Assembly: GCF_000172995.2 (NCBI RefSeq)
Contig: NC_014731.1
Coordinates: 30,001-62,000, forward strand
Direction of reading: 5' to 3'
DNA: 32,000 nt
Origin: Halogeometricum borinquense DSM 11551
GTDB taxonomy: Archaea > Halobacteriota > Halobacteria > Halobacteriales > Haloferacaceae
Below, piece after piece: positions 5,864 through 19,017 of the stretch. The translations under genes and the position numbers were made by a program. The first letter of the stretch is position 1. Every line of letters begins with the position of its first letter. Below the pieces are notes generated by a model, which was not told the origin of the DNA, made no database searches, and saw nothing but the letters and a program-made list of their open reading frames with translations.

Positions 5864-8116
5864 ATGACGCTCGAAGACGACGCACGAGAGTATCACCGGC
5901 GTATTCCACCGGGGAAAGTAGAGATCGCAACGACGAAGCCAACAAACACCCAGCGTGACCTCTCGCTGGCGTACTCGCCGGGAGTCGCGACACCGTGTCG
6001 CGACATCGCCGAGAACCCAGAGCAGGCGTATCGTAACACCGTAAAGGGGAATCTCGTCGGTGTCGTCTCCAACGGTTCGGCCGTTCTGGGCCTCGGTGAC
6101 ATCGGCGCACAGGCTTCCAAGCCCGTGATGGAGGGGAAAGGCGTCCTGTTCAAACGCTTCGCCGACATCGACGTGTTCGACATCGAACTCGACCTCGATG
6201 ACCCCGATACGTTTACGCAGGCCGTCGCGGCGATGGAGCCGACGTTCGGGGGCATCAACCTCGAAGACATCAAAGCGCCCGAATGCTTCGAGATCGAGTC
6301 GGATCTCTCAGAACGAATGGATATTCCAGTGTTCCACGACGACCAGCACGGCACTGCCATCATCTCCGGGGCCGCACTACAGAACGCCGCCGACATTGTC
6401 GGGAAGAATCTCTCAGATCTGCACGTCACTTTCGCGGGTGCGGGCGCGGCAGCGACAGCGACTGCCCGGTTCTACGTCTCGCTCGGCATCCCTCGGGAGA
6501 ACATCACGATGTGCGATATCGACGGGATCCTCTCGGAGGCTCGGGCCGAAGCTGGTGACCTTAACGAGTTCACCGAGCCGTTCGCCTGCGGGGAGGACGA
6601 CGGCGAACTCGAAGACGCGATGGAAGGCGCGGACGTGTTCGTCGGCCTCTCAGTCGGCGGAATCGTTTCCCAAGAGATGGTACGGACGATGGCCGACGAT
6701 CCGATCATCTTCGCGATGGCGAACCCCGACCCCGAGATCACCTACGAGGACGCCAAGGACGCGCGCGACGACACGGTCATCATGGCAACGGGCCGGTCGG
6801 ATTACCCGAACCAAGTGAACAACGTCCTCGGCTTTCCGTTCATCTTCCGCGGAGCGCTCGACGTTCGCGCAACCGAAATCAACGAGGAGATGAAGCTCGC
6901 TGCTGCGGATGCACTCGCAGACCTCGCCCGTGAGGACGTTCCAGATGCCGTCGTCAAGGCCTACGGCGACGAGCCACTCCAGTTCGGTCCCGACTATCTG
7001 ATCCCGAAACCACTGGACCAGCGCGTCCTCTACGAGGTGACACCCGCCGTCGCGCGGGCTGCGATAGAGAGCGGCGCAGCCAGAACGGAACGCGACCTCG
7101 ACGCCTACCGCGAGGAACTCGAAGCGCGCCTCGGCAAGTCCCGCGAGATGATGCGTGTCGTGATGAACAAGGCGCAGTCGGATCCAAAACGAGTCGCACT
7201 CGCCGAGGGAGAAAACGAGAAGACGATTCGTGCAGCGAGTCAACTCGTCGAAGACGGCATCGCTGAACCCGTTCTCATCGGACGGAGAGACCACATTCTA
7301 CAGAAAACTGAAGAGCTAGGGTTGGACTTCGACCCGGTTGTTGTGAACCCACGCGAGGGGGAGTGGACCCACTACGTGGACTACCTGTACGAGCACCGGC
7401 AGCGAAAAGGTCTCACACGGACGGAAGCAAACGAACTCATCCGGCAAGACTCGAACTACTTCGCCAGCGTGATGGTGGAAATGGGCGATGCCGACGCGAT
7501 GCTCACTGGACTGACGAACCACTACCCGTCGGCGCTCCGACCACCACTGCAGGTTATCGGCACGGCCGAGAACGCGAACTACGCGGCCGGTGTCTACATG
7601 CTGACGTTCCGGAATCGAGTCGTCTTCTGTGCGGACACGACCGTCAACCTCGATCCCGACGAGGAAGTACTCGCGGAGGTGACGAAACACACCGCGGAAC
7701 TGGCCAAGCGCTTCAACGTCGAACCGCGGGCGGCGCTCCTATCGTACTCGGACTTCGGGAGCGTCGAGACCGAAGGCGTTCGCAAGCCACGCAACGCGGT
7801 GAACATCCTGCACGACGACCCCGACGTCGACTTTCCGGTCGATGGGGAGATGCAAGCGGACACTGCTCTCGTCGAGGAGATGCTGACAGAAACCTACGAG
7901 TTCGCAGAACTCGACGGTCCGGCGAACGTGCTCGTGTTCCCAAACCTCGAAGCGGGCAACATCGGCTACAAGGTGCTCCAGCGACTCGGCGGTGCCGAGG
8001 CCATCGGCCCGATGCTCGTCGGCATGGACAAGCCCGTCTACGTCCTCCAGCGCGGTGACGAGGTCAAAGACATTGTCAACCTGGCGAGCGTCGCCGTCGT
8101 GGACGCACAAGAATGA
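5864..8116 (+). CDS. maeB: NADP-dependent malic enzyme (malic enzyme domain fused to a phosphate-acetyltransferase-like domain)
   Basis: 750 aa. The N-terminal half is a malic enzyme with its NAD(P)-binding region (FAGAGAA). The C-terminal roughly 320 aa is PTA-like. This is the classical MaeB architecture. Confidence 0.93.
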
Positions 8117-8151
8117 CGCAAATAGAACCAATTGAGCTAACAGTGTTTTAA

Positions 8152-8421
8152 TTACAAATATGAAAACGTATTCTCATCCATATGAATAGCCAGAAATAGA
8201 ATCTGCTGAAATAAACAAATCCCGACCACAATTGTCAAGAGGAGTGTGATAAGTTTGGGGAATGGTCCCATATTTAGAGAAATCACTGGCCGAATGTAGA
8301 GATAGCTGAAAAGGATTCCCACGACAGATAGAGTCGTCTGAAGCGTAGCCACAAGAACAGGATGATTGAACTCCTCTTTGCCGAAGAATTCGTTAAACCT
8401 CGATGCAAGCTCTGATTGCAT
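8152..8421 (-). CDS. Small hypothetical membrane protein (89 aa)
   Basis: ATG start and two to three hydrophobic helices. The gene is AT-rich, atypical for the window. A 6-bp inverted repeat flanks the upstream TATA region (8440-8460). Confidence 0.4.
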   Translation of the reverse strand: MQSELASRFNEFFGKEEFNHPVLVATLQTTLSVVGILFSYLYIRPVISLNMGPFPKLITLLLTIVVGICLFQQILFLAIHMDENTFSYL

Positions 8422-8530
8422 ACTCCCGAATACTACCTAATGTCATGTATATTTTGACATGTTGTTGATAATTCTATTGATGACAAAAGCCGTCCAATAG
8501 GGAAGTTGAGGAGAGTCAAGGGAGGGCTGT

Positions 8531-8929
8531 TTAACTGGACCAGTAATATAGCATTAGTTGACGCGTTCGTTGAGATTGAGTCGGATCGGGAACAGCAAGA
8601 CTCGAATCGATTTGGTCACGTGTCTGAAACGCAACTCGGCCCGTTTCTTCGCTTACTGGCTCGAAGACGAAATATGACCGGTGACCTTCCAGGAGATAGT
8701 CAACGGTGTGGTCTCTCTCAATCGCTCCCGTATACAACTGTTGCCCGATCTCTAACAGTGCAGGCAAATCCAGGGCGAGAAAGTCGCCAACGAACTCGGG
8801 AGCCCAGCCACTCCAGGATATCTCCGCTTCGTTTTCGTATGTGTTGATCCGGATTCCACCAGCAGTGATCTTAATCGCACCACTGCCGGTCGATATCATC
8901 TCGGGGCCGTCAGCAGTTACGATACTCAC
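8531..8929 (-). CDS. Hypothetical acidic protein (132 aa)
   Basis: An acidic, halophile-like ORF. The longest form starts at a GTG (8929), with an alternative ATG at 8899. No recognisable motif. Confidence 0.45.
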   Translation of the reverse strand: MSIVTADGPEMISTGSGAIKITAGGIRINTYENEAEISWSGWAPEFVGDFLALDLPALLEIGQQLYTGAIERDHTVDYLLEGHRSYFVFEPVSEETGRVAFQTRDQIDSSLAVPDPTQSQRTRQLMLYYWSS

Positions 8930-9163
8930 TTGGGAGCGTGAGTGGCGGCGTCCGCTTGTCTGCTTGAGTCCACTGGCCAGTCAATGCTACTCCCGAACGA
9001 AATTGAGACAGCCCTCTAGTATGTTCAAAGACCCGTTTTATCGTCCCCAACATACATATTCGAGGTTTTACAAGTCGTGTCATGGACCAGAGTAAACGCT
9101 GGTCGGGCTATCGTACCAAACCGTTCTCACTCGAGAGTAACATAAGAATCTCGCCCAGTACGC

Positions 9164-9814
9164 ATGCGTAATCGTCTACACGAAATACTTCATCGAGAGC
9201 GACCGTCAAACGATGATCTCCCCCTCCGAGTCGTCGGTATGGACGAGGATGAGGCAGTCGAACTCTTCGAAACGCTTGGGAGTGAGACGACGTATCGCAT
9301 CTACCGGCAACTGCATGAAGAGCCCAAAGTTCCTCGTGAACTCGCCACGGCGCTTGACAGTACGATCCAGAATATCCACTATCATCTCAACAAGTTAGAA
9401 GAAGCAGATCTGATCCAACCAGTTGATACCTGGCATTCGGAAAACGGCGTGGAGATGAAAGTCTATGTCCCAGTTCACGATCCCCTAGTGATAAGCTTTG
9501 GCTCACATGAAGATCAAGACCAGATACAAACGCTGCTCTCACGAGTGTTTGGTCTTCTCGGCGGTGTCTCATTGATCAGTCTGATTGCTGAATTTATCGC
9601 TGCATCTGCGACTAGTTCAGATACCACAGGCAGCGACGTAATAGCGGAGTCATCCAAATCCCCAGCGAGTGGTGAACCTCATACCCTGTTTGACAATCTC
9701 GTAGGGGTGGTCCTCCAGTCAGACCCCGGAGTCGTTCTCTTTCTGCTAGGGGTAACCATTCTCTCGGTATCTACCGCACTCTATCTCGCTCGTCGAGAGC
9801 CATCAGTGCGATAA
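9164..9814 (+). CDS. Membrane-tethered ArsR-like winged-helix transcriptional regulator
   Basis: 216 aa. An HTH segment (RELATALDSTIQNIHYHLNKLEEADLI) is followed by two C-terminal hydrophobic helices. Confidence 0.7.
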   Translation: MRNRLHEILHRERPSNDDLPLRVVGMDEDEAVELFETLGSETTYRIYRQLHEEPKVPRELATALDSTIQNIHYHLNKLEEADLIQPVDTWHSENGVEMKVYVPVHDPLVISFGSHEDQDQIQTLLSRVFGLLGGVSLISLIAEFIAASATSSDTTGSDVIAESSKSPASGEPHTLFDNLVGVVLQSDPGVVLFLLGVTILSVSTALYLARREPSVR

Positions 9815-9874
9815 AATCACTCTTTTATCATGCTGAATACATTTATTTCTGGCCGCCATACTCCAAAGTAGAGC

Positions 9875-10549
9875 ATGAAACGAAGAGCCCTCCTTGGCAG
9901 CCTCGGTGCTGGATCGGCCCTCGGCTTTGCAGGCTGTCTCTCCGACACAGGTACACAGGACGGATCAGATGGCGTGACCGAGACAACTAATCGGACCGCA
10001 TCAGGAACTGAAACAGATATGAATACGTCCAGTACACCTAACACTCCAGCATCTCTTCCGTGTCCCCCACATACGCCGACACACGACGAGGCCGTCTGTT
10101 CGCACACCGTTGATCCCGAAACGGCACAGGTGTATCTAGAACCTCGTCCATCACGAAGCACTCTCGCTGATGGACTGCCGTCAGAGCAGATCTCCCTGAC
10201 GCTTCACAACCAATCCGACACCGAACTCACCTTCAACCCTTACAGCTGGACCATTCGTCGTCACTCACAGAGCGAGTGGCAGCAACTCCAACTCCAACCC
10301 ACCGCAGACGGTACTCTAACACTTTCATCCGGAGAATCTCAGTCTTGGACACTGCAAGAGGTGATCAACTCGGGTCGTGAAGAGACGGACCTTAATCCGG
10401 GCACCTACACTTCCGAAATCGGTGTTCCCAATCCCGAAACAGACGCGTGGATAAGTTGTATCGCAATCATCCGACTTGATCCCTCTACTGCCGATGAAAC
10501 GCCGTCAGGGATGAGTGAGGACGGCAACGATACTGTCAGTTCAGGCTAA
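9875..10549 (+). CDS. Secreted lipoprotein, hypothetical
   Basis: 224 aa. It has a Tat motif (KRRALL) and lipobox (FAGC), a Thr/Ser/Pro-rich linker, then a roughly 120-aa beta-rich domain. Confidence 0.7.
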   Translation: MKRRALLGSLGAGSALGFAGCLSDTGTQDGSDGVTETTNRTASGTETDMNTSSTPNTPASLPCPPHTPTHDEAVCSHTVDPETAQVYLEPRPSRSTLADGLPSEQISLTLHNQSDTELTFNPYSWTIRRHSQSEWQQLQLQPTADGTLTLSSGESQSWTLQEVINSGREETDLNPGTYTSEIGVPNPETDAWISCIAIIRLDPSTADETPSGMSEDGNDTVSSG

Positions 10550-10649
10550 CAACCGAATACTTCCCGTTCTGGAGGTCTGAATTACGAAGTGAGGTACAGA
10601 GATCGAACCTGAGGGGGAGCTTGTATTAGAGACGAGAAAGGGAAACGAG

Positions 10650-11426
10650 TCAGAAGTTGCTGTCGATGTAGGAGTGGACGCTGTTCTCAGCGCAGTTGCT
10701 CACCCACTCGACGATCACTTCCGTACTCCCGTTGTTGCTACACGACACACCGTCCCAACTGTACATGATGCTGATCTCATCATCGGGGGAGGCCGACCGA
10801 GTACTCACATCAGCTGGGTGACTGGAATTGTACAGGTGAAGGAGCTCGTGGAACGCGGTCCCGTCCGCCTTGACCTCCGAGAGTTCTGTGGGGAGGTTGT
10901 TGTTGTCCTCGTGGTGGACGTCAGCGAGGCTGGACTTGTTGTCGCTGTCTCCGGCCGTCCCCTCGTATCCGACTCCGTATGTGTTGCTGTCTTGGCCGTA
11001 GTAGTCGATAATCACGATTGCGGACGGACCATCATAGAAGTCGCTCTCGTTGTTCTGGAGCCAGTCGTCTGCATCGATGAGACGGCCAGCGAGAGAGCCG
11101 CTGCTCGGAAGTGCGCTAGAGGGAACTGTCACACCAGCCGGACCCTGCGCCGTGAACCACGACTCGTAGTCACCACTTCCATCCTCGATGTGGCTCCTCC
11201 AGGCGTCAGAAACCCACGAGAGGATGTCACTCATCCGGTTAAAATCCATGTTGTTCCAGAACGGTTCTGTGCCGACGAACTGTGTTCCGATGTTACCCGA
11301 CTGGAAGACTGCGTCCTGAGAGTTGATGTCAACTCCCTGTGGCACGACCGTCGCTTCCTTGACCTTCCCATCGACTCTAGTGACGTGTATCTCCTGCTCC
11401 TGCGACTTCTCCTGCTGCTGTGACAT
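10650..11426 (-). CDS. Metzincin-like zinc metalloprotease, no signal peptide
   Basis: 258 aa. It has HELLHLYNSSH (HExxHxxxxxH spacing) at aa 193-203 and a Met-turn-like SIMYS 18 aa downstream. The N-terminus is hydrophilic. The ATG lies 2 nt after the upstream stop and is preceded by a GGGGTGA SD-like element. Confidence 0.68.
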   Translation of the reverse strand: MSQQQEKSQEQEIHVTRVDGKVKEATVVPQGVDINSQDAVFQSGNIGTQFVGTEPFWNNMDFNRMSDILSWVSDAWRSHIEDGSGDYESWFTAQGPAGVTVPSSALPSSGSLAGRLIDADDWLQNNESDFYDGPSAIVIIDYYGQDSNTYGVGYEGTAGDSDNKSSLADVHHEDNNNLPTELSEVKADGTAFHELLHLYNSSHPADVSTRSASPDDEISIMYSWDGVSCSNNGSTEVIVEWVSNCAENSVHSYIDSNF

Positions 11427-11428
11427 TA

Positions 11429-12211
11429 TTACTCACCCCCTTTGATGATATCAACGTCTTTCGGCACTGCGACGAGATCGGCTTCCTCGATCTTCGAAGC
11501 GTGCTCGTCTGCGAGTGCGAGAATTGATTCAACTCGTGCCTGAGCGTAGTTGTCCCCGGACGCTAGCGGAAGGACTAGGTAGTCATCATGACCGAATACT
11601 GTCACTTCGCCGTGGTTCCGTGTCTGAACTCTGCGTTCGAGAGGAGTAGCACTCTCATCCGTTGAGTCCGCTACAGATTCGGGCCGACCAGAATCAGCCA
11701 CTTCTTGCCCCACGGACACTTCGAGGTCGATACTGTCAGCACTCACTCGAACACCGCTGCCCTCTGCTTGGACGTGGACAGAACGACCGGCCTGGACTTG
11801 ATCGACCACTGCGTACTGAGCGCCTAACTGTCGGTAGTTCGTGTTGACCGGTAGTCCCCGCTCTGAATTCGTGATCTGCACCGACTTGTCGACGGGGTAG
11901 TAGTCACCCCCAGCAGCTACGACAGTATCGTGTTCCCTGAAGAGTTCCACAGGCGCATTCGTCAGCGTCAGAACACCTCGGCTCTGGTCGAGCGCGTACC
12001 CCGCAGTTCCAGTTCGTGAGATTGTCGGGGCATCGGAAGGAGCCTCGTACTCTTCCTTGATTTCGACGAAGCGAACAGTACCTTGTTCGAACTTGTTGGG
12101 ATCGGCGGCAGCCACCCCGGCTCCGCTACCAAGGCCGAGCGTGAGGACGCCGAGTCCAGCAGTGGACTTTAGTACGCCACGCCGTGTCTGAGTAACTTCG
12201 TTGTCTGGCAT
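11429..12211 (-). CDS. Tat-secreted hypothetical protein
   Basis: 260 aa. The twin-arginine signal (TRRGVLKSTAGLGVLTLGLGSGAGVAAA) has no lipobox Cys. The mature part is acidic. Confidence 0.75.
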   Translation of the reverse strand: MPDNEVTQTRRGVLKSTAGLGVLTLGLGSGAGVAAADPNKFEQGTVRFVEIKEEYEAPSDAPTISRTGTAGYALDQSRGVLTLTNAPVELFREHDTVVAAGGDYYPVDKSVQITNSERGLPVNTNYRQLGAQYAVVDQVQAGRSVHVQAEGSGVRVSADSIDLEVSVGQEVADSGRPESVADSTDESATPLERRVQTRNHGEVTVFGHDDYLVLPLASGDNYAQARVESILALADEHASKIEEADLVAVPKDVDIIKGGE

Positions 12212-12637
12212 TGTTTGATCCGCATTGTCGGCTCGGTCCCGCGGCGAATTTGCTCTAACCGTTCGGAAAATAGTGAGCTTAGGGTTGGCTTACGATGTTT
12301 TCAAGAAAATCCGAAACGAAGCCACACCATTCCTCTTGCTCGATTTAAATCCCAGTAAGTTTCAATTTAGATGACTACTTGCTGAACTGGTCGAGGGGAT
12401 CCCCGAATCAGTTGCCACTCTACAAGATTTGTGAACAGGATTTCCAAGACCTATTTTAGATATGATAAAAACGACAGTTCAAAACGCTCTCGCTGGGGAA
12501 CCTACCCCTCAGCACGACCTCAACAGACTATCAGTAACTGAATATTTCAATAGTCCCTATAATCTATATTACAGCTAATTGTAGGTCGGGGATAGAGTTT
12601 AATATGAATTAGTGGTGACATTAGCACACATTGGAAA

Positions 12638-13429
12638 ATGGTTCCACCAAGCCCTAGTCCGCTTGCTGAGACTCTCCAAGCACGATTAGACTGTTTACGG
12701 ACAATAAATGACGACCCTCAAGAGAAGCGAACGCTCACAGACTCATTAGATATCCCGCGTTCCACCCTCGACGACATCGTCCGAGAGCTGGAAGAAAAGG
12801 GCCTTGTTTCATATAGGGATGGGGAATGGCACACTACTCCCTGGGGACAACTGGCGTGTGAGATGCATTATTCTTACTTGAACAGCATCCGGGACCTCAT
12901 TAAAGCAAAACCAGTTCTGGACATCCTCCCGCCAAACCACTCGCTTAGTGAGTCAGTTATAGTTGATGCCGAAGTGAAACTACCTCATCCGAATGTATCG
13001 GGTTGTCTCATGGGAACGATTTTGGAACGTCTTGAGAAGGCTAATGACATCCGTATAGCGACACCTCAAGTCTTGACAGGGTATTACGAGCAGTTTTACC
13101 AGTATTGCTCTAACGATGAAACATCAGTAGAAATTATTCTTGATCAACAGATCAGAGACTGGTATGAATCCCAAGACTCTGAGAAAGTAAATGAATTATC
13201 CAATTGTCCATCCACTTCTGTGCGCTGGAGAGAGATTCCCTTTGAGTTTGGTCTGGTTCTACTTGACGATGAAGAAGTTATCGTCTCCGTCTTCGCCGAA
13301 CATGGCATTGCTGGCCTCATCATGAATGATTCACGAGATGCAATGGCCTGGGCAAGGGACAGATATGATTCAATTAGACAAGATTCTGAGTCAACGAAGA
13401 ACAGTAATAAAATCTCTGGGGTAACGTAG
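12638..13429 (+). CDS. Winged-helix transcriptional regulator (possibly FilR1/DUF1724-like)
   Basis: 263 aa. The N-terminal wHTH is RTLTDSLDIPRSTLDDIVRELEEKGLV, followed by a roughly 180-aa C-terminal domain. The gene and its flanks are AT-rich. Confidence 0.62.
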   Translation: MVPPSPSPLAETLQARLDCLRTINDDPQEKRTLTDSLDIPRSTLDDIVRELEEKGLVSYRDGEWHTTPWGQLACEMHYSYLNSIRDLIKAKPVLDILPPNHSLSESVIVDAEVKLPHPNVSGCLMGTILERLEKANDIRIATPQVLTGYYEQFYQYCSNDETSVEIILDQQIRDWYESQDSEKVNELSNCPSTSVRWREIPFEFGLVLLDDEEVIVSVFAEHGIAGLIMNDSRDAMAWARDRYDSIRQDSESTKNSNKISGVT

Positions 13430-13930
13430 GCTAAAGTCAGATTTAACCGTATTTAGCAAGCTGGGTTTGGCACCATCAATTTTCTACCACCTGTTCTAAA
13501 CGTTTGGTAGACTAGTTAAACGTGGAATTTGCATTCACCGTATTGCACCGCCCGGCGAACGAATAACAGAACCCCACGACTGGCTGATACAACTTACGGC
13601 TCTCCAACTCCGGTCGCTCCCGAGAGGCATTCTGTTGTCGATACAACTGCCGGTGTCGGATTGCGAGTGGGGTGATAGGCTCTACGTCAACATCAAACCG
13701 AACGCTTCCGTGAGCGAGGTTTGCCGGGAGCGGCCGAGCGATTGATCAGCGTCACGATTCCCGGAACGATTGGATTCGGCACTGAACGCCGACAAGACAC
13801 GCGAAGTCATTTCGCGCTACTATCTCGCAAACGCCATCGAATTCCGTTCGGGCGTGAAGTCGTACGGAAATCAAGGATGTCCGTGATGGCGAGATGCGCT
13901 GCATCTCGAACCACTTGACTCCGGGGCGAC

Positions 13931-14611
13931 TCAGGATTTGGACTGGTGATGAGCGGCAGAGGAAGAAGCGCTGTCGGCCCAGAGGTCGTAGCCGACGACA
14001 AGCGCCATAGCACTCGTTGGCGTAATTAACAGCAAGTCAGCAATAGGCGTGAACTGAACGCCGAGCAGCGAGACACCGAGGTACGCACAAGTGAGCAACG
14101 GTGCGCCGGCGAGTGCGATGCCAAGTCGCATATTGTCGGCCCGGAGGTAGCCAGCACCCCACCCGACAAGTCCGGGGAGTGTAAGCACGAGTCCGATAGC
14201 CTGAGCAAGAAGGCCAAGGACGTAACTCATGATTTCGTCCAGGCCCGCTGTAGTGACTAATAGGCTTCCGAACAAGATGATACTCGTCCCAAAGACGGTG
14301 ACGAGGCCGGACACACTCCGTAAGTTCGACAGCGACGTACCGTCACGCTTGAACAGCGCGCCCAAACCGACAATGACCAGAACATTCGCACTGACGGTCA
14401 AAAAGGGCTGAGCTATCCGTTGCATCCAAATTGCACTAAACAGCGGTGGAGCAAACACGTACGAATCACCCGGCTGTGGTTCGGGCCACACCGCAAGCGG
14501 AACTGCGGCAATGAGCAAACAGAGGGCACTAAGACCGAGAAGCGGACCAGCGGTCCGGTATGAAGGACGCCACATCGTATCACTCACCTCCGATAGCCAC
14601 CACGGTGCCAT
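13931..14611 (-). CDS. Polytopic membrane protein, hypothetical
   Basis: 226 aa with about 6 hydrophobic helices. The longest form overlaps the upstream gene by 32 nt. An alternative ATG at 14575 begins 4 nt after the upstream stop. Confidence 0.62.
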   Translation of the reverse strand: MAPWWLSEVSDTMWRPSYRTAGPLLGLSALCLLIAAVPLAVWPEPQPGDSYVFAPPLFSAIWMQRIAQPFLTVSANVLVIVGLGALFKRDGTSLSNLRSVSGLVTVFGTSIILFGSLLVTTAGLDEIMSYVLGLLAQAIGLVLTLPGLVGWGAGYLRADNMRLGIALAGAPLLTCAYLGVSLLGVQFTPIADLLLITPTSAMALVVGYDLWADSASSSAAHHQSKS

Positions 14612-16467: not shown

Positions 16468-17480
16468 ATGCGTGTCGCAGCTTTCAGCGATTTCACTGGT
16501 CCAAATAGCATTTCGATTATCGATCGGCCAATACCTGAACCCGATAGACATGAGGCTGTAGTCGAAGTCGAGGCGTGTGCGATCAATCGTCACGACCTCT
16601 GGATTCTCGAAGGAGACTCCGCAGTGATAGATACGGACGACCTGCCATTCGTTAGTGGTCTTGACCTTGCAGGAACTGTCCAGAATATCGGTGAAGACTT
16701 ACTGGTGTCGAGTCCGGTGATCGTGTAGTTCTCTGCCCGAACGTAACGTGCGGAACATGTCGCTACTGTCGGGAGGGTCCGGAAAATCTCTGTGAAAATT
16801 ACTCGCTCTATCACGGAGGACTTGCTGAGGCTGCCCGGGTACAGGCTGACCGTCTCATCCCCCTTCCGGATTCCGTGAGTACGGTTGAAGCGGCCGCTCT
16901 TCCGACAGCCTACATGACCGCGTACCATATGCTTCGCCGACTAGAAATCGGACCGACTGACCTCGTGTTTATTCCCGGTGTGACTGGAGGTGTCGGGGTC
17001 GCCGGTGTGCAACTCGTAGCCTCCCTTGGTGCCCACAGCATCGGGACGTCTTCGTCTCAAGTAAAACTCGACCGCCTCAAATCGCTCGGTCTTGACTACG
17101 CAATCAAAAGCACCGACCCAAACGAGATTGAGGATGCGGTCACAAACATCGGCTCGGTTGACGGTGTACTTAACCACCTCGGAGGAGAGTACACCCAGCT
17201 TGGGTTGGATGTATTGCGGCGTGATGGTCGGATGGCGGTCTGCGGGCGGACAGCTGGTAATAAATCTGTAATCAACATCTCAGATCTATTCCTCGGCCAC
17301 AAACGCATCATCGGGAGTACAATGGGAACACAACGTGATTTGGAGACCCTGATAGGACTGGTTGCAGCCGGTTCTCTCACACCTGAGATTGACGAAACCT
17401 ACTCGCTTGAGGATACTGAAGCGGCGTTCGTGGCGATGCAGGACCGCGAGAGCGTCGGAAAGCTCGTTGTCATCCCCTAG
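16468..17480 (+). pseudogene. Zinc-type alcohol dehydrogenase / quinone oxidoreductase (MDR family), frameshifted
   Basis: ORF 16468-16728 (MRVAAF...NIGED) stops prematurely. The sequence continues in another frame from about 16698 (LTGVESGDRVVLCPNVTCGTCRYCREGPENLC...) into ORF 16875-17480. A single frameshift near 16697-16701 restores a roughly 337-aa MDR protein. Confidence 0.75.
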
Positions 17481-17728
17481 TTCGTTCTAAATAGAGATGA
17501 TTTGACCAGTCGTTCACTTGATCTCAGAGTCCACTAAATAAGCGATCCAGTCTGCTATGACTTTTGACTCACCACGTCGTGATAACGGAATCTAATCACG
17601 CTCTTGAGCCTGTGTTTCTTCTTGTTGCTGCTTGAACACAACTCCGGAGAATGATTTTGATGCGTGCCTTCTGTTCGGCTCTGTTGAAATCCTCAGGAAG
17701 TTACATGTTCGCCGTGTAATTCGATGAG

Positions 17729-17812
17729 ATGAAGGCCCTCCCGAAGTCGCAGATTCTCCGGTTTACTGAGAAGGCGATCCATCTGGCACGGCGAGCTGTC
17801 GCTCGATACTGA
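17729..17812 (+). mobile_element. N-terminal 27-codon remnant of a haloarchaeal IS transposase (IS5-family-like)
   Basis: MKALPKSQILRFTEKAIHLARRAVARY* matches the N-terminus of a haloarchaeal transposase family that continues RYSSKFSKRRYT..., as I remember it. Here the ORF terminates and the homology ends. Confidence 0.4.
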
Positions 17813-17853
17813 GACTATCCAAGGGGTGGTGCGAAAGATCACTTCTCAGTATT

Positions 17854-18030
17854 TTACCTAAGATTGAAAAGAACGAACCCAGAAGCGAGACCGCCTGCAA
17901 CAGCCGGAATAATCGATTCAAGTAGACCTCCGTCAAAGAGAACTAATTCGAAAACACTCGATATTACCACCCAAACCACCACATTAGTCGTTATGAATAC
18001 CCATTGGTCTTCTAAGTCAAATGAGGCCAT
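17854..18030 (-). CDS. Possible small two-helix membrane protein (58 aa)
   Basis: This ORF is below the track cutoff and was found by hand: MASFDLEDQWVFITTNVVVWVVISSVFELVLFDGGLLESIIPAVAGGLASGFVLFNLR. It has two hydrophobic helices, is AT-rich, and has no clear promoter. Confidence 0.25.
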   Translation of the reverse strand: MASFDLEDQWVFITTNVVVWVVISSVFELVLFDGGLLESIIPAVAGGLASGFVLFNLR

Positions 18031-18639
18031 ATCTGCGAATTATGTTCCAGTCTCTAATCCGTACTGGTGTCTTCGCACTCTTCACCAACCGGCTGTTTCA
18101 GTCGATAATGTGTTTGAAGAATAGGATTTCAACAAAGCTAAAAATCCATAATTCAAGAGCACTGAACGTAATGAGAGCTATTCCCAGATTAGTCAGAGGA
18201 CGCTATGTGAAGTACATCCCTTTGAAAAGACAGATAATTTACAATTACGATGGTAATATTGTCACGCTGTAAATTTCCAATTCGCCGAAATGATTCCGGT
18301 CTAACTGGAATCAGTGAACGGATTAGACTCGCCTTTGGTGATAAAAAACAACAGTGTGTTTCCCATCGTGTTCAGGTCTTCGTGTCCGATAGGATATACA
18401 AGATGAAAACCATCCTCCACAGTCTGGGACCAACTGTGATCTAGTAGGCGACTCTACGCTTCGCCCCTCTTCGGTAACCTATCTCAGTTATCCCCTATCA
18501 TATCATATGAATTTCTATCCTGTTGGAAAGTTGCCCCAATAGCCCGAATCAAGGCCGAGAATATTATTTCACTACTTGACAATCAGAAAACATAAATATT
18601 TTTATGTAATCAGACACACATAACAGATGGTGTTTCACA

Positions 18640-18945
18640 ATGCCAACTAACTTAGAAACGGTCCAGTTCACGTTCTCAGACGTCACGGGTCACGAGTACA
18701 CTGACTCGGAAAGTCTCGGCGCTAGTGGACAGGTTATAGCGGCAGAGACGGCTATCAAGAGCTTCGAGATCGGATTTGAGGGCAACGACCGCGAACTCAT
18801 GTCCGAGAAGATTCAGACCGATGCCGACGTGCACGGCGACACAATCAGTGTGAATCTTGAAGCACTCTTCCGCGACGCCAGCGGTCATATCGACGACCCG
18901 TACGGTGGCAATGTCGAGGTACTCGTTATTACCGAAAACGAGTAA
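18640..18945 (+). CDS. Small acidic hypothetical protein (101 aa)
   Basis: ATG start and acidic composition. An AT-rich promoter with the inverted repeat ACATAAA-N4-TTTATGT (18590-18607) lies about 35-50 nt upstream. A T8 run lies 27 nt after the stop. Confidence 0.55.
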   Translation: MPTNLETVQFTFSDVTGHEYTDSESLGASGQVIAAETAIKSFEIGFEGNDRELMSEKIQTDADVHGDTISVNLEALFRDASGHIDDPYGGNVEVLVITENE

Positions 18946-18971
18946 CTCGACTGTCTGACTGATTGGTTCGA

Positions 18972-18979
18972 TTTTTTTT
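18972..18979 (+). terminator. Oligo-T (T8) archaeal-type terminator
   Basis: TTTTTTTT lies downstream of the 18945 stop. Archaeal RNAP terminates at oligo-T tracts. Confidence 0.4.
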
Positions 18980-19017
18980 GCGTTAGCGTATCACAGTTAT
19001 TATCGGCGGCGTGTACG

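Follow-up and report, generated by a model that had tools for sequence, protein, structure and literature searches.

A signal-less, adamalysin-like metzincin gene coupled to a Tat-signal partner gene in Halogeometricum borinquense, and its possible export by Tat hitchhiking

We analysed a stretch of 32,000 nucleotides (nt) from Halogeometricum borinquense DSM 11551 (contig NC_014731.1, positions 30,001 to 62,000), called here the window, whose own numbering gives all the coordinates below. The subject is a pair of adjacent open reading frames (ORFs) on its reverse strand. The upstream ORF (11429-12211, (-), 260 amino acids (aa)) encodes a protein with a twin-arginine translocation (Tat) signal, which we call the partner or 'caddie', and the downstream ORF (10650-11426, (-), 258 aa) encodes a predicted adamalysin-like metzincin without any signal. 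Both ORFs show 100% identity to genes recorded for this strain, C499_07325 and C499_07330 respectively. The initial annotation of the locus had read these genes as a possible Tat hitchhiker pair, in which a protein with a signal takes a signal-less protein along with it, and within the limits of a computational analysis we find support for this interpretation.

The gene pair and the Tat-signal partner

Read on the coding strand, the junction between the two genes is GGGGGTGA-G-TAA-TA-ATG: the stop codon TAA of the partner lies at 11431-11429, a gap of 2 nt follows, and the ATG of the protease lies at 11426-11424. The Shine-Dalgarno (SD)-like element GGGGGTGA (11433-11440, (-)) lies within the final partner codons, those for ..KGGE ahead of the stop, 6 nt 5' of the protease ATG, and it agrees in 7 of 8 bases with GGAGGTGA, the haloarchaeal SD consensus. 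The junction is therefore as first described, with a downstream ORF that starts 2 nt after the stop behind an SD-like element. Elements resembling GGAGGTGA were also found at the equivalent junctions of homologous loci. In gene order and coupling the pair is a translationally coupled operon, which is probably under the control of a divergent FilR1-type regulator described below.

The C-terminal '..KGGE' of the partner is conserved, and its codons also make up the GGAGGTGA element, of SD-like type, ahead of the protease gene (11429-11440, (-), in the window, and likewise in the loci L002, L003 and L010). The cause of this conservation may be the translational signal and not a function of the protein.

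The protease begins with MSQQQEKSQEQE, a hydrophilic N-terminus without any hydrophobic stretch. Furthermore, its reading frame contains a TGA two codons 5' of the ATG, and therefore no hidden or longer N-terminus is possible; the absence of a signal from this protein, claimed initially, stands. The same TGA rules out a hidden upstream start as well as a programmed frameshift or a readthrough that would fuse both ORFs. Frameshift or readthrough fusion is also ruled out by the junction geometry, which varies among the loci (+4, +2, +1, -1 and -4 nt).

Regarding the partner, its N-terminus, MPDNEVTQTRRGVLKSTAGLGVLTLGLGSGAGVAAADP, shows a textbook twin-arginine motif (TRRGVLK), a hydrophobic region (h-region) and an AxA site. 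The motif is followed by an uncharged h-region of 20 residues and then by AAA and D, between which the putative cleavage site lies. The signal peptide would thus comprise around residues 1-36 (12104-12211, (-); MPDNEVTQTRRGVLKSTAGLGVLTLGLGSGAGVAAA, with DP as the next residues), and the codons of the arginine pair (RR) are at 12184-12179. R10 and R11 are invariant in the 9 partners that could be aligned, down to 22% identity, and RR is found in 3 further homologues. In one homologous partner the annotated start had been missed, which hid the RR, and the pair was present once the start was corrected. The initial description of a clear twin-arginine signal was accurate, with the reservation that the partner stays below the cut-off of the TIGR01409 model.

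The mature partner has around 225 aa and no cysteine. As had been stated from the sequence, it contains no recognisable domain: the protein has no match in Pfam, NCBIfam or PDB and its profile has none in Pfam or PDB, so that this family of putative carriers is without a representative in Pfam. Its best-conserved block, (V/I)RNHG..(T/E)V(F/Y)GH.D....P..S.D.YAQ.RV, is near the C-terminus. When the partner profile was run against a set of 5.8 billion proteins, at least 5 proteins were recovered. We also considered the partner as a paralogue of the protease and rejected this, because hhalign aligns only the Tat signals of the two families.

The protease family and its predicted fold

The zinc-binding motif of the protease, H193-E-L-L-H197-L-Y-N-S-S-H203, is encoded at 10818-10850 (-), and in the hidden Markov model (HMM) alignment it pairs with HELGHVFNMLH of ADAMTS4. 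Its spacing, H193-E-x-x-H197-x5-H203, is the correct one for the metzincin motif, although the Gly position is relaxed and occupied by Asn. Met221 of the Met-turn (S-I-M-Y-S; 10764-10766, (-)) follows 18 residues past the third His. Both elements had been reported initially and lie where they had been placed (10850-10818 for the zinc motif and 10766-10764 for Met221, in coding direction).

A word-indexed search retrieved 7 close homologues of the protease only, all of which share HExxHx5H, an Asp at the third position after it and IMYSWD. A profile, run against 1.84 billion cluster representatives, recovered 108 relatives, with E<=1e-10 for 69. The family has around 115 representatives at 50% identity, and every named one comes from Halobacteria. 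In a family alignment of 101 sequences H193, E194, H197 and H203 are conserved in 91, 94, 92 and 86% respectively; the initial annotation had made the conservation of HExxH in homologues a check of its reading, and the motif is indeed kept, at 86-94% for the four residues. Met221 is invariant in the close subfamily and is Met in 71% of the 101 relatives, with Ile, Leu or Val in most of the others, and the Ser/Thr two residues ahead of it is conserved in 100%. Where the canonical motif has Gly, the relatives differ (Gly in 27%, Asp, Ser or Asn in 44%), and therefore the Asn of the window protein is a trait of the family and not an oddity. The third His is followed by P-A-D in the window protease (H203-P-A-D), and across the relatives an Asp is found most often at the second position after this His (53%).

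Two cysteines, Cys229 (10742-10740) and Cys245 (10694-10692), delimit a segment at 10692-10742 (-). They are conserved in 101 of 101 sequences, in signal-less members and in members with a Tat signal of their own alike, and the window protease has no other cysteine. This pattern suggests a disulfide, which would probably tie the loop after the Met-turn to the C-terminal helix.

We found no significant match in Pfam, NCBIfam or PDB for the sequence of the window protease, the Pfam matches at E<=1 being only noise. When the 101 relatives were scanned singly at E<=0.1, Reprolysin_5 was matched by 40 of them (best E 1e-9), Reprolysin_3 by 29, Reprolysin_2 by 22 and Reprolysin_4 by 12. The family profile, compared with PDB, matched ADAMTS4, ADAM10, atrolysin, ulilysin and fragilysin weakly (E 0.005-0.02), and in these alignments the zinc motif and the 'SxC' helix at the C-terminus line up. 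Profile searches had been proposed initially for both proteins; they linked the protease, through its relatives and its profile, with the reprolysin-type metzincins, and for the partner they returned no match.

The AlphaFold2 (AF2) model that was built from the 101 sequences has a mean predicted local distance difference test score (pLDDT) of 92.5 and a predicted template modelling score (pTM) of 0.90; from the 7 close homologues alone the pLDDT was 35 and the model unusable. In the Foldseek comparison of the model with PDB there were 122 matches at E<=0.001, the best one being BaP1 (E 1.7e-8), and the best 50 of the 122 were all catalytic domains of snake-venom metalloproteinases, ADAM or ADAMTS enzymes. 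These matches had a target template modelling (TM) score of 0.64-0.70, a probability of 1.00, around 220 aligned columns and an identity of 10-19%. By its predicted fold the protease is therefore a metzincin, of adamalysin-like type, which agrees with the 'metzincin-like' label that it had received from its motifs. Considering the conservation, the synteny and the fold together, the HExxH is not a chance occurrence, and the downstream product is predicted to be a zinc endopeptidase that works like an adamalysin-type metzincin.

Although the protease has the extended zinc motif with its relaxed Gly, the Met-turn and the modelled catalytic-domain fold of the metzincins, we do not assign it to the adamalysins/reprolysins proper (MEROPS M12B). 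It shares with them the predicted fold, the HExxHxxxxxH and the Met-turn, and the Cys of the 'S-x-C' with which its C-terminal helix begins is aligned to 'FSLCS' of ADAM10. However, it has no match to a curated Reprolysin model, no cis prodomain or cysteine switch and no secretory signal peptide, it has two cysteines only, the Gly of HExxHxxGxxH is Asn, the third His is followed by PAD instead of directly by Asp (HPAD for HD), and the identity is 10-19%. As there is no curated-model match, prodomain, cysteine switch or HD dipeptide and there are only two cysteines, we file it as a new and remote sister family within the metzincins, not as a member of M12B by curated thresholds.

The window protease starts 48 residues ahead of the core, and these residues form a hydrophilic, subclade-specific N-terminal extension of around 48 aa (11283-11426, (-)). 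Homologous extensions were found only in Halogeometricum, Halopiger and Halobiforma. Although the extension is present in three sequences only, AF2 predicts a beta-hairpin (residues 12-28) and a helix (34-43) with high confidence, the pLDDT being around 90 over residues 11-30. The extension might serve for docking or as a mini-prosegment.

Signals, partners and neighbours across the loci

Around 100 of the 115 family members have 205-235 aa and start 1-4 residues from the first core strand ('..I.V.GTE.F..N') and therefore lack both a signal and a prodomain. In 103 of the 115 there is no N-terminal hydrophobic stretch other than this first core strand, and a Sec-type signal was found in none of the approximately 115 members. 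Nevertheless, around 12 members carry their own N-terminal twin-arginine signal, joined directly to the core.

Six of these Tat-bearing members (P0014, P0033, P0040, P0079, P0087 and P0095) are without HExxH, having for example RPTLK in its place, and keep both cysteines and the fold-defining residues. Judging from these sequences, they are presumably secreted pseudo-proteases.

Upstream DNA could be read in 11 independent loci with a signal-less protease: the window, a plasmid of Halopiger xanaduensis, Halobiforma haloterrestris, a plasmid of Halorubrum hochsteinianum, a plasmid of Natronosalvus caseinilyticus and six metagenomic contigs. Each of the 11 has, directly before the protease gene and in the same orientation, a gene for a partner homologue with an RR signal, and the junctions range from -4 to +4 nt. 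The identities of partner and protease to the window pair follow the same rank order (60/67, 51/61, 45/51, 31/46, 24/33 and 22/24%). A survey of synteny in haloarchaea was another check suggested at the outset, and it found the genes co-conserved and coupled in 11 of 11 signal-less loci. A search of contigs with the profile of a 10-sequence alignment returned Halobiforma only among genome contigs and nothing among metagenome contigs.

Four loci with a Tat-bearing protease were read as well, namely P0014, P0035, P0077 (chromosome of Halomontanus rarus) and P0087 (Halorussus litoreus), two of the four being isolate genomes with flanks of 6 kb. The partner gene is absent from all four, where the partner HMM matches only the signal peptide of the protease itself. 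Thus, in the loci read, there is strict co-occurrence of signal-less protease and partner, and 'own Tat signal' and 'partner present' are mutually exclusive. The contrast of 11/11 with 0/4 gives a Fisher p of around 7e-4, a value that ignores phylogeny and is indicative only. In a rough neighbour-joining (NJ) tree the four Tat-bearing members sit in four separate groups, and therefore the signal state has switched repeatedly.

Upstream of the pair there is a divergent intergenic region (12212-12637) with 42.5% GC against 55.8% in the window, so the AT-rich DNA that had been noted beside the pair is there. This region presumably holds the promoters and the operator, and our operator search found only weak inverted repeats in it. 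Beyond it lies a gene for a winged helix-turn-helix regulator (12638-13429, (+)) with Pfam matches to HVO_A0261_N (6.7e-13) and FilR1_middle (1.7e-20). Its initial identification was correct; its description as something that merely flanks the pair was not, because homologues of this FilR1-type regulator are co-conserved within around 3 kb of the pair in 6 of the 11 loci, usually in divergent orientation (window, L002, L003, L004, L010/11 and L014/15). No FilR1-type regulator was found in any of the four Tat-bearing loci.

On the other side of the pair, a convergent gene (9875-10549, (+)) encodes a lipoprotein with a Tat signal and a lipobox (MKRRALLGSLGAGSALGFAGC..., with RR and then AGC) and a weak Ig-like (Big_14) match. 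A Tat-lipobox lipoprotein, a recurrent neighbour that had escaped the initial annotation, adjoins the pair in 8 of the 11 loci. Homologues of the window lipoprotein were found in Halobiforma (L004 8514-9155, (-), 47% identity) and in L007 (560-1135, (-), 29%), and the Tat-lipobox lipoproteins next to the genes in L002, L003, L021, L022 and L024 are not related to it. The lipoprotein is therefore a candidate third component, as an anchor, an inhibitor/immunity protein or a substrate. The gene directly upstream of it (9164-9814, (+)), the second regulator-like gene in this low-GC stretch, encodes an ArsR-type helix-turn-helix domain (HTH_20) fused to a membrane-associated HVO_1552_C domain at the C-terminus.

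The positions from around 8000 to 14000 and from 17000 to 19000 have 44-50% GC, compared with the 55.8% of the window, which suggests patchy and possibly horizontally acquired DNA around the cassette. Several of the other loci are on plasmids or beside insertion sequence (IS) elements or an integrase, with neighbours that include IS200/IS605, IS5 and transposases. The cassette is an accessory, mobile trait of Halobacteria. Regarding the window itself, a plasmid location was rejected: it has no megablast match in PLSDB, and the partner is recorded on a contig of 2.81 Mb, presumably the chromosome. An anti-phage defence role or a viral origin of the pair was rejected too, there being no PADLOC or PHROGs match.

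We also observed several cases of decay of the cassette. The protease is frameshifted in Halobiforma haloterrestris (L004 7731-8489), the partner is frameshifted in the Halorubrum hochsteinianum plasmid (L022 3187-3980), and a truncated protease remnant without partner is found in Halomarina sp. BND7 (L023 3887-4435). Near the cassette there are a SAVED-domain protein (L003 5430-6383) and a haloarchaeal antitoxin (Antitox_halo, L002 5912-6082), neighbours that fit the variable accessory regions seen at the other loci.

Export by Tat hitchhiking and the alternatives

We find a twin-arginine signal on the carrier, no signal on the cargo, and two genes that are adjacent and inherited together, which are features of a Tat hitchhiker pair. 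Moreover, a signal either on the enzyme or on a coupled upstream partner is the pattern that Tat hitchhiking predicts, and for this reason we propose the partner as a Tat 'caddie'. With a probability of roughly 60%, the partner carries the signal-less metzincin out of the cell by Tat hitchhiking.

The mechanism that we infer, from complex formation and co-export to inhibition, the disulfide and the substrate, would run as follows. Synthesis of both proteins at similar levels would be followed by their assembly in the cytoplasm, and there the protease would also fold and acquire its zinc. The folded complex would then be exported by the Tat translocase by means of the partner's signal. Outside the cell the Cys229-Cys245 pair would oxidise, and the protease would be released or activated. 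The invariance of these cysteines in both kinds of members suggests that signal-less and Tat-bearing proteases share one final, oxidising compartment. Enzymes of the adamalysin type usually depend on a prodomain to stay latent, and the cytoplasm is where Tat cargo folds. As the enzyme would fold inside the cell, the partner plausibly masks the active site too, as a prodomain or inhibitor supplied in trans, and so it may stand in for the missing prodomain. This step is weaker than hitchhiking itself, because Tat-bearing relatives with HExxH manage without a partner.

Several points weigh against this proposal. Six Tat-bearing relatives keep HExxH and yet have no partner, and therefore neither folding nor latency depends on a partner throughout the family. 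Among the four Tat-bearing loci without a partner gene, two are on short contigs whose upstream sequence is below 750 nt. The TIGR01409 score of the partner is 10 bits against a cut-off of 16.7. Homology of the partner to any chaperone, prodomain or inhibitor was not detectable with its profile in Pfam or PDB. Finally, no fused partner-protease protein (of around 480 aa) was found among the 108 representatives, a result that also counts against frameshift or readthrough.

The pair might instead be a protease/inhibitor (immunity) couple without co-export, a protease/inhibitor couple having also been among the initial suggestions. In this case the Tat-exported partner inhibits the enzyme outside the cytoplasm and protects the surface of the producer, and the signal-less protease takes a different way out of the cell or becomes active only once cells lyse. 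A model is provided by serralysin and Inh, a protease without an N-terminal signal and an inhibitor with one, and besides this analogy the tight coupling, the strict co-conservation and the mobile accessory contexts of the loci (IS elements, integrase and plasmids), as are often seen for competition factors, are in its favour. However, the HExxH-keeping members with their own Tat signal should equally need the inhibitor and lack the partner, another export route for a folded signal-less protein is not evident in the loci, and from the tight coupling one would expect synthesis at about the same level, as is more natural for subunits of one complex than for proteins of separate compartments. We therefore consider this couple unlikely in the form without co-export; it can be combined with hitchhiking. 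A cytoplasmic metzincin that acts on the partner seems to us less likely again. Here the protease would be a maturation enzyme that trims a Tat substrate before export, as the hydrogenase endopeptidases do before the export of HybOC, and the partner would be the real secreted effector. This would account for a protease without a signal, for the strict pairing and joint divergence of both proteins and for the more variable, effector-like character of the partner. Nevertheless, Tat-bearing related enzymes occur in at least 4 branches, so that the catalytic domain works outside the cell there, signal-less and Tat-bearing members have the two invariant cysteines in common, and the best 50 of the 122 structural neighbours are all extracellular enzymes; cytoplasmic metzincins such as archaemetzincin have different motifs. 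Both explanations are disfavoured mainly because of the complementarity between own signal and partner.

The explanation to which we give the least weight, and which we think quite improbable, is a shared operon without binding, in which the FilR1-type regulator would merely control two members of one pathway together, such as an enzyme and a protein that binds to surfaces. The protease would then reach the outside in vesicles or through lysis, unless the start codons of some genes are mis-called. Operon membership alone is actually no proof of interaction, and the partner has no profile match in Pfam or PDB. However, a mis-called start is excluded in the window by the in-frame stop two codons upstream, around 100 family members begin directly at the core, and the mutual exclusion of own signal and partner would be left unexplained.

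Among the known systems, the closest precedent for hitchhiking of the metzincin is the melC operon, where MelC1 is about half the size of the partner described here. The pair resembles melC in having an upstream gene for a Tat-signal helper and a downstream gene for a signal-less metalloenzyme. The bicistronic Streptomyces melC operon encodes MelC1, with a Tat signal, and the signal-less MelC2, which hitchhikes, is activated by MelC1 and is secreted in complex with it (PMC2758597). Unlike in melC, there is no sequence similarity, the enzyme is a predicted zinc protease whereas MelC2 is a copper oxidase, the hosts are archaeal, the protease family also has members with their own Tat signal, and export of the enzyme is a proposal. 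HybO and HybC of Escherichia coli are a Tat hitchhiking pair, and as in HybO/HybC, DmsAB and PaoABC the RR signal is on one of the two proteins only. The redox hitchhikers are cofactor enzymes and obligate catalytic partners, whereas the cargo here would be a hydrolase whose relatives work alone. For redox-enzyme Tat hitchhikers, PMC4273604 describes an RR signal on only one subunit and the export of the folded complex.

Other archaeal metzincins are ulilysin, of the pappalysin family in Methanosarcina acetivorans, to which our profile has a weak match (E 0.011), and the archaemetzincins. However, they belong to different metzincin families, and a Tat carrier is not known for either of them. 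The prodomain of ulilysin is in cis, and archaemetzincin possesses a Cys4 zinc site in addition. We found no description in the literature of the family reported here or of a hitchhiking protease. The components, a metzincin, a Tat signal and hitchhiking, are known. What is new is their combination in Archaea, with a protease family whose members either have a Tat signal themselves or would depend on a dedicated Tat-signal carrier not described before.

A wider proposal would make this the first protease and the first non-redox archaeal enzyme exported by Tat hitchhiking. A carrier family of around 225 aa with an undescribed fold would deliver a metzincin and act as its prodomain or inhibitor in trans, the lipoprotein would be a surface anchor or immunity factor, and together with the regulator they would form a mobile four-gene secreted-protease cassette of Halobacteria. 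Taken as a whole this is tentative, and we hold it with less confidence than hitchhiking.

Haloarchaea export most of their secreted proteins folded, via Tat. To our knowledge, it is not settled by what means folded secreted proteases are prevented from doing harm in their cytoplasm, and hitchhiking has hardly been explored in them. The locus defines two uncharacterised, co-evolving protein families, and it places in Halobacteria an adamalysin-like fold that is best known from snake venoms and animal ADAM enzymes. Furthermore, it offers a natural experiment, since one and the same catalytic domain either has a Tat signal itself or is encoded after a partner that has one, and several switches between both states have occurred; this natural alternation makes co-export directly testable in genetically tractable haloarchaea. 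If the partner is also a prodomain or inhibitor in trans, the difficulty of having an active protease fold in the cytoplasm would be solved. If hitchhiking is true, the 'caddie' principle of MelC1 and MelC2 would extend to zinc proteases and to Archaea.

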